DNA from: an uncultured Pseudomonadota bacterium
GTDB lineage: Bacteria; Babelota; Babeliae; Babelales; UBA12409
Assembly (NCBI GenBank): GCA_964549515.1
Contig: CAZJVC010000001.1
Location: 10,011 to 53,127, forward strand
Direction: 5' to 3'
DNA: 43,117 nucleotides
The position numbers and the translations under genes are program-made. A model generated the notes under the pieces. It ran no database searches, was not told the DNA's origin, and was given only the letters and a program-made list of their open reading frames with translations. Numbering within the stretch: the stretch's first letter is position 1; the number at the start of each line of letters is the position of its first letter. Positions 36,845 through 37,305 of the stretch are shown piece after piece.

Positions 36845-37030
36845 CTAACGGACCAATTCAGCTGCATTTTGTCCAGCAATTCGTCCAAAAACTACGCATT
36901 CGAGCAGTGAATTGCCACAAAGACGATTTGCTCCGTGCAAGCCACCAGTAACCTCCCCTGCTGCAAAAAGATTCTTAATCCTGCCATTAGAGCGTTTTTT
37001 TGCGGGTTCCTTATCGACAGCTGGAAAAAC
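36845..37030 (-). pseudogene. Remnant of about 60 codons from the C-terminus of a succinate dehydrogenase / fumarate reductase / L-aspartate oxidase flavoprotein gene.
   Basis: Minus-strand translation gives [42 protein letters not shown]. This matches the conserved FAD-binding C-terminal motif of the SdhA/FrdA/NadB family ([25 protein letters not shown]). An in-frame stop sits just upstream, and the GC-rich repeat at 37066 abuts it. Confidence 0.55.
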
Positions 37031-37065
37031 TTATTCAATTCTATAACTTGCGGTTTTTTTTCTTC

Positions 37066-37305
37066 GTTCATCCTGCCGTGCCCGCCCCTTCGTCAAGCTC
37101 AGGGTAAACTACATCCTGAGTAGCACAAAGTGCGTATCGAAGGGTCCGCTCATCCTGCCCTTCGACAGGCTCAGGATAAAATTGTATCGAAGGACGCTCA
37201 TCCTGCCTATCCGCCATAGCTTTAGCGACGGCTGGGAGTGATTTGCGAAGCAAATTGTATCGAAGGACGAAAATACTCAGGATAAACTCTGGGTGCGAGC
37301 GAATT
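37066..37305. repeat. GC-rich dispersed repeat element (copy 3) with an internal, degenerate tandem structure.
   Basis: It contains gtatcgaagg x3, ctcaggataaa x3 and cgctcatcctgcc x3, and shares segments with 1-80 and 5461-5590. Its GC content is far above the surrounding sequence. Confidence 0.75.

Follow-up and report, generated by a model that had tools for sequence, protein, structure and literature searches.

The flavoprotein gene end beside rseP in the window (the whole stretch of 43,117 nt that was analyzed) is read here, with a probability of about 0.8, as the distal copy of a 337-nt direct repeat that was made when a gas-vesicle island of ~15.0 kb inserted at the 3' end of the flavoprotein gene frd. 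The proximal copy, termed copy A, forms the end of the intact gene, and the distal one in the window is termed copy B. As such, it is a scar of the kind that insertions commonly leave, although the setting is unusual. What makes it of interest is the stretch that it delimits, namely a gas-vesicle island with flanking repeats, recently acquired by a Dependentiae-like genome. All data are metagenome assemblies of mixed strains; contigs are denoted by L numbers where they have to be told apart.

The fragment and its surroundings in the window

The features of the locus, given in coordinates of the window, are the following.

35490..36599, plus strand: RseP-type site-2 protease (Peptidase_M50 with PDZ)
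36606..36642, no strand: 18-bp perfect inverted repeat between the repeat unit and the RseP stop codon
36655..36689, minus strand: intrinsic terminator, 11-bp stem (36662-36689) plus T7 run; 3' end of the duplicated unit
36690..36765, minus strand: long near-perfect hairpin of ~76 nt in the duplicated 3' flank, just before the terminator, in both copy types
36788..36838, minus strand: identical block of 51 nt, the same in every copy of the unit
36845..36991, minus strand: copy B, flavoprotein 3' end, 47 homologous codons plus TAG stop
36992..37065, minus strand: spacer of 74 nt from the fragment to the GC-rich repeat, devoid of flavoprotein homology and holding the in-frame TAA (37031-37033)
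37066..37320 (start at ~37065), no strand: GC-rich mosaic dispersed repeat, just inside the right end of the island
37321..43117, minus strand: right-hand part of the island, which continues ~9 kb past the end of the window

The reading frame of the fragment comprises 61 codons on the minus strand (37030-36848), in agreement with the roughly 60 codons counted in the sequence-only reading, and is bounded by an in-frame TAA (37033-37031) and a TAG (36847-36845). It has neither a start codon nor any upstream part of the gene. Homology to flavoproteins is confined to the last 47 codons (36991-36848), and the first 14 of the 61 match nothing. Pfam family PF00890 (FAD_binding_2) is matched with an E value of 1.1e-8 and 35.2 bits (cut-off 20.4) over profile positions 384-414 of 414, and the best PDB match has an E value of 1.8e-13. 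The N-terminal Rossmann segment with its GxGxxG FAD-binding motif is missing, and tblastn and blastn searches of the window found no further gene remnants upstream of the fragment. Since neither the Rossmann segment nor any other gene part is present in the window, the fragment is a remnant and not an enzyme. It is not translated and serves no function by itself. The 47 homologous codons themselves contain no disruption; a frameshift is found only in a separate copy on other contigs, termed c1 and described below.

The fragment is 100% identical in the five independent assemblies of the RseP locus that were directly compared (L001-L003, L005, and L006). Contig L092 is 100% identical to window positions 32511-43117, and L090 is 99.6% identical to the window overall, with a fragment translation that is 100% identical. 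An assembly artefact or a sequencing error is ruled out by this 99.6-100% identity in the seven independent assemblies under direct comparison (L001-L003, L005, L006, L090, and L092). A full-length gene that only appears broken through a sequencing error, which the sequence-only reading had considered, is contradicted by the identity of the fragment across independent assemblies. The contig of the window recurs in several JGI and ENA metagenomes.

Upstream of the fragment, the alignment of all copies shows that homology stops at 36991, ~75 nt short of the GC-rich repeat. The intervening spacer (36992-37065), which forms the right-hand boundary of the inserted DNA, is not matched by the flavoprotein gene in either blastn or tblastn. 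The gene was hence not truncated at the GC-rich repeat, as had been proposed. The repeat itself lies where it had been placed, at ~37065-37320. Other copies of it are located at window positions 1-70 and 5460-5570, so that the window starts inside one copy, and contigs L003, L005, L094, and L095 end within it; assemblies break there. It has ~50% GC in a genome of ~38% GC and is built of short modules in both orientations, e.g., CGCTCATCCTGCC, CCCTTCGACAGGCTCAGGATAAA, and GTATCGAAGG. Gene callers predict spurious ORFs of 59 and 83 aa herein.

Downstream of the TAG, homology of copy B with copy A continues and ends at the T-run of the terminator, the hairpin and T7 run of which were found as previously described (36655-36689). 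A perfect palindrome of 20 nt, AAAAAAGTTTAAACTTTTTT, lies at 36813-36832 within the 51-nt identical block, the latter being unique in the window. On the side of copy A, this part of the flank is located at L087 3747-3912. The long hairpin that follows is retained, in spite of 18 substitutions, by both copy types, with 9 of the 11 differing base pairs staying paired; its fold energies in the two copies are -47.1 and -42.3 kcal/mol (z-scores -9.2 and -7.9). When 36400-37700 was scanned against Rfam at E <= 10, all matches were below threshold and attributable to chance, and the 3' flank falls into no known RNA family. Retention of the fragment as carrier of a small-RNA promoter was considered and set aside, as no promoter-like site between the stop codon and the hairpin passed the scan. 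Beyond the unit, the 18-bp inverted repeat is native flank outside the duplication, being present after the gene in the island-free contig L102 as well, and rseP is the ancestral convergent neighbor of the flavoprotein gene. In more distant relatives, only 5 nt separate frd and rseP; the whole duplicated 3' flank is therefore specific to this lineage.

The intact gene, the island and the empty sites

A first homologue search with the 61-aa fragment as query did not reveal the intact gene; the matches listed were short proteins only (47-107 aa), none of them more than 88% identical. The gene was found by scanning metagenome contigs for an exact pattern of 23 nt taken from the fragment. Five contigs were returned, in three of which (L087, L088, and L089) the 337-nt stretch is the end of an uninterrupted gene encoding 520 aa (L087:2184-3746). 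The encoded protein matches PF00890 over its full length (positions 2-414 of 414, E 5e-76) and contains the Rossmann segment VVVIGGGLAGL. Window positions 36656-36991 are 87% identical to the end of this gene over 337 nt (E 1e-115), and the coding part of copy B is 85.4% identical at the nucleotide level. With the intact protein as tblastn query, residues 465-520 align to window positions 36991-36824, which is the sole match. The repeat unit, with its sharp ends, combines the terminal 147 nt of the frd coding sequence with 190 nt of 3' flank, the latter comprising the 51-nt identical block, the long hairpin, and the terminator.

By its sequence, frd falls into the soluble fumarate reductase/flavocytochrome c3 flavin-domain class and does not encode a complex II or NAD-biosynthesis protein. 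The best PDB matches are the yeast soluble fumarate reductase Frd1/Osm1 (5GLG/6KU6), 1QO8, and 1D4C; urocanate reductase matches too. In soluble fumarate reductases and flavocytochrome c3, the motif of the fragment forms the true C terminus (residues 420-470 of 471, and ~521-566 of 566-572), as it does in urocanate reductase. The assignment of the sequence-only reading to the C terminus of SdhA/FrdA/NadB is upheld for the C terminus of the PF00890 domain and not for the subfamily. SdhA, FrdA, and NadB share the PF00890 superfamily domain and the common FAD/substrate-binding motif GGxHGANRLGGNSL with frd, and PDB entries of their type are indeed matched by the translated segment. Their matches, however, are weaker (E 1e-10 to 1e-5 versus 1e-13), and their motif is internal (residues ~367-430 of 540-664) and followed by a C-terminal helical domain. 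This domain (Succ_DH_flav_C), typical of complex II, is lacking in the intact copy, where the motif stands at the C terminus.

Compared with yeast Frd1/Osm1 (5GLG/6KU6) and the flavin domain of Shewanella flavocytochrome c3 (1QJD/1D4C), the fragment aligns to the extreme C terminus, and the intact paralogue is likewise a single-domain PF00890 protein of ~500 aa, with a predicted fumarate reductase activity. Unlike the soluble fumarate reductases compared, it has no heme domain, carries an N-terminal hydrophobic, signal-like segment, and contains an RLCGNS motif specific to its clade as well as an insert of PEQA-type repeats. The hydrophobic, signal-like N terminus is also found in the Dependentiae-type orthologues. 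The PEQA-type motif is encoded by a tandem DNA repeat (ATPEQATPEQAAPEQA) at L087 2626-2689 and varies in length (proteins of 520 vs. 515 aa); comparable repeats are also present in several unrelated window genes (1100-1148, 2097-2153, 7204-7309, and 12847-12884). The nearest named homologues of the intact protein are eukaryotic fumarate reductases (NADH) with 42-49% identity, including those of Balamuthia, Anaeramoeba, Andalucia, fungi, and nematodes, and no named bacterial protein is among its best 120 matches. These eukaryote-like nearest homologues may reflect a transfer of the gene from or to a protist host.

Intact gene and fragment can be placed on one map. Contig L092 runs past the window through the gas-vesicle cluster, gvpA, a 52-aa ORF, and a DUF433 gene and ends in 177 nt of copy A; it is overlapped by L087, L088, and L100 over 559-2153 nt with 0-1 mismatches. 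Both the intact gene and the fragment occur together in at least three samples (3300005936, 3300025661, and 3300005932). Judging from these overlapping assemblies, the two lie in the same genome, ~15 kb apart. The order is rplM, an RBR-like gene, intact frd with copy A, DUF433, gvpA and the gvp cluster, thioredoxins, a 114-aa ORF, the GC-rich repeat, copy B, and rseP. About 15.0 kb (L092 positions 178-15180) are bracketed by the two copies, which form direct repeats. Loss of the flavoprotein, as previously concluded, did not take place: an intact 520-aa gene is retained ~15 kb away in the same genome at its ancestral position next to rplM.

Within the window (37321-43117), the island genes comprise a 41-aa ORF, a 114-aa coiled-coil ORF, two thioredoxins, and Hsp20-like, gvpJ/M-like, gvpF/L, and gvpK genes. 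Those of L092 beyond the window encode GvpO, G, F/L, a CDC48-like AAA protein, Hsp20, GvpN, and two unknown proteins. The gas-vesicle cluster, which is complete, extends from window position 39487 to 43117 and on into L092 1-9300. It contains gvpA, gvpN, several gvpF/L (one fused to DnaJ), gvpG, gvpO, gvpK, gvpJ/M-like, Hsp20/GvpH-like, and CDC48-like AAA genes. Two adjacent paralogues with weak Hsp20-like C-terminal domains (39487-40116 and 40106-40648) are 71% identical over 224 nt. At the left edge of the island (L092 176-536), a DUF433 antitoxin-like gene has its stop codon abutting the terminator of copy A and is accompanied by the 52-aa ORF; the two may be the remnant of a toxin-antitoxin module. 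Outside the island, between rplM and frd, a RING/IBR (RBR E3 ubiquitin-ligase-like) protein is encoded (L087 571-1695; L103 8343-9467), which is absent from L101 and resembles eukaryote-like effectors of intracellular bacteria.

A Pfam search of the island ORFs at E <= 0.1 revealed no integrase, recombinase, or transposase apart from a Tn916-Xis match with an E value of 0.022, which is below threshold. Scans of viral contigs with two patterns from the unit gave no matches. Homologues of GvpN include one that is 74% identical, followed by a plateau of 58-63% that includes named Thermodesulfobacteriota, Ignavibacteria, and Saganbacteria, and no donor of the island could be named from them. In the literature searched, no paper was found that treats Dependentiae or TM6 together with gas vesicles.

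Two distant relatives without the island come from a protein search with the intact flavoprotein. Contig L101 and a 40.7-kb contig (3300072015) encode frd proteins that are 59-60% identical, in the order rplM, frd, and, convergent with it, rseP, rpsL, rpsG, and fusA; no island is present. The left-hand gene order of the window organism, seen in L103, is the same as that of L101, gene for gene. A much closer relative is represented by L102, whose gene is 95.5% identical to the intact copy at the nucleotide level (dS 0.09 and dN/dS 0.29 over the whole gene). It contains a full-length frd with one unit, followed by 52 nt that match the RseP-side flank (window 36655 down to 36604), and again no island; the contig stops 52 nt beyond the unit, with RseP itself off the contig. 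From this join of frd to the RseP flank it follows that the island was either inserted between frd and rseP or cleanly removed in L102. Directly upstream of its frd, L102 encodes a group II intron reverse transcriptase/maturase (RVT_1 and GIIM, 1019-2365) that breaks the interval between the RBR-like gene and frd. All three relatives, two distant and one close, thus have a single frd at the junction and no second copy, and the ancestral arrangement is rplM, frd, convergent rseP, and rpsL. The uninterrupted frd-RseP junction of the relatives and the gain of a 15-kb island speak against genome reduction by repeat-associated deletion, which had been invoked for this locus, and this synteny likewise contradicts a loss in place.

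RseP of the window is closest to that of Candidatus Babeliales, Dependentiae, and Babelota MAGs (37-48% identity), with other phyla at ~30-35%. In 12 Babeliales/Dependentiae genome loci, no flavoprotein motif was found within 10 kb of RseP; as their RseP is only 37-48% identical, these genomes are too distant to be informative.

Divergence of and recombination between the copies

Between copies A and B, dS is 0.55 and dN is 0.059 over the 47 shared codons. All 9 changes in the conserved core (codons 6-42) are synonymous and none is nonsynonymous, a distribution with P ~6e-6 if changes were random, i.e., under neutrality. The fragment is hence not decayed, and neutral drift after a local duplication could not have given such a pattern. 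Of the previous description as a decayed gene remnant, the non-coding PF00890 C-terminal remnant without a start codon is retained and the decay is not. By their substitution pattern, A and B diverged while each belonged to a functional gene.

The synonymous divergence between A and B is about six times the distance between strains (L087 vs. L102), and L102 is identical to copy A at 14 of 14 diagnostic core sites. The core of B therefore derives from a functional gene that is far more distant. Most economically, it is read as having come with the island from the frd of a diverged donor, and the fragment is thus a recently displaced gene end, probably derived from a donor. It carries the RLCGNS signature that is specific to the clade of frd orthologues; because this signature is of the Dependentiae type, the donor would have been a relative and not a eukaryote.

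The copies have also recombined. Copies A and B are separated by 63 sites, at which other contigs (L102, L091, and L004) show clean block mosaics that result from recombination between the repeats. The single unit of L102 has the pattern a-b-a-b (core, tail, hairpin, and terminator). An extra tandem partial copy, c1, directly follows the terminator of copy A in L091 (2943-3402) and L004 (11140-11771) and includes 28 nt more of the gene than copy B does. In L091, c1 is b-like in the mid-core and a-like afterwards and contains a 1-nt deletion, causing the frameshift, and several nonsynonymous changes including His to Arg. In L004, c1 switches to the b-type inside the 51-nt identical block (alignment columns 152-205) and then continues into rseP, so that this contig is either a genuine deletion of the island or an assembly chimera via the 51-mer.

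Mode of insertion, known analogues and meaning

The arrangement would most likely be accounted for by a circular intermediate that carried the island together with the frd 3' end of a diverged donor. By a single crossover with the resident frd 3' end, i.e., a Campbell-type insertion-duplication, the circle would have been integrated with no need for an island-encoded integrase. The conserved core of the fragment would herein have arrived from the donor, and the direct repeats would remain substrates of homologous recombination, which would yield the mosaic copies and could delete the island. The empty sites, the duplication, the insertion, and the retention of the intact gene are established, whereas we infer this mechanism, as no recombinase was found among the island genes and no circular form was seen. 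It is favored for leading to just the topology found and for doing without an integrase; the island encodes none, and the unit has no match in viral contigs. Most known cases of Campbell-type insertion-duplication stem from laboratory work and from the integration of plasmids. There, as with suicide plasmids and integrated circular DNA, direct repeats flank the insert, resident and incoming sequence are combined in each of them, no dedicated integrase takes part, and the event is reversible. The frd island resembles such insertions by its flanking direct repeats and differs in that the circular intermediate and the donor are what we infer here. Copy c1 is not accounted for by a single insertion event, and the a-b-a-b pattern of L102 does not arise by a single crossover under any simple model; one extra conversion tract is needed.

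Integration of a site-specific element would produce the same topology, with direct repeats, an intact gene, a fragment at the far end, and empty sites in relatives. Such an element would target the frd 3' end and supply a replacement gene end, in the manner of e14 and icd, by means of an integrase acting in trans or since lost. Its att core would lie in an identical block, for which the 51-nt block shared by all copies, with its perfect 20-nt palindrome, is the natural candidate, and the DUF433 antitoxin-like gene at the island edge would fit as well. This course is nevertheless unlikely: no island ORF contains an integrase or excisionase domain, the Tn916-Xis match staying below threshold, viral contigs give no matches, and the repeat is long, diverged throughout its 337 nt, and lacks a single obvious short core.

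Far less probable is a tandem duplication of the frd 3' unit that preceded the island, the latter being inserted later between the copies by illegitimate recombination. The second partial copy c1 behind the copy A terminator in L091 and L004, with its 28 nt of additional gene sequence, could be taken for such a precursor. As a b-like/a-like mosaic with a frameshift, however, c1 looks like a product of recombination. Moreover, local copies start identical and the non-coding one should decay neutrally, instead of which a dS of 0.55, about sixfold that between strains, is combined with a core devoid of nonsynonymous change. Truncation in place of a full-length gene next to RseP, be it the sole copy or a paralogue, by a deletion at the GC-rich repeat, as proposed in the sequence-only reading from the missing 5' part and the proximity of this dispersed repeat, is equally improbable given the intact copy 15 kb away, the single frd at the junction in relatives, the ~75 nt between the end of homology and the repeat, the homology beyond the stop codon through the terminator to a 3' end common to both copies, and a locus that gained 15 kb and did not lose sequence.

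For insertion-duplication at the frd 3' end, the closest known analogue, on comparison of the arrangements, is icd/icdC with e14 in E. coli. The arrangement around the cryptic prophage e14 in E. coli K-12 is that of Hill, Gray and Brody 1989 (PMC210168), as cited in PMC13626634. Therein, icd and icdC flank the 15.1-kb e14 element, and the copies differ mostly at synonymous sites; a chimeric icd gene results from e14 excision, with an intact gene at one end and a C-terminal fragment pseudogene at the other (PMC13626634). Shared with the frd locus are an element of ~15 kb at the 3' end of a metabolic gene, which stays intact with an alternative 3' end, and a C-terminal fragment at the far end in direct orientation that differs mainly at synonymous sites. 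In contrast, e14 is a prophage that encodes its own integrase and excisionase, whereas no recombinase or phage gene was found in the frd island. The cargo here is a gas-vesicle operon and the host an uncultured Dependentiae-like bacterium, and, unlike in icd/icdC, the frd duplication includes the terminator and ends 190 nt past the stop codon.

A sharply bounded C-terminal fragment beside a repeat is easily mistaken for a sign of gene loss in a shrinking genome. In this case 15 kb were gained and the gene stands intact nearby, so that scoring the flavoprotein as absent in a metabolic reconstruction would be a mistake. The recent acquisition of the complete gas-vesicle operon is dated and delimited by the scar, which also gives the exact insertion site, and through the direct repeats the island could be lost once more. 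Gas vesicles in Dependentiae and eukaryotic NADH-fumarate reductases as nearest named relatives of frd are both helpful starting points for understanding this lineage. A further reading, possible and still rather doubtful, is that, by virtue of its 337-nt repeats, the whole gas-vesicle operon serves as a cassette that does without an integrase and is gained and lost among Dependentiae strains by homologous recombination, with the frd piece as homology handle. If so, presence or absence of the island, and hence buoyancy, would be polymorphic within a natural population, and the empty-site allele L102, the join in L004, and the mosaic copies would be its footprints. The Dependentiae lineage is regarded as consisting of obligate intracellular parasites of protists. 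On this reading, gas vesicles in such a lineage would also point to an unrecognized free-floating stage.
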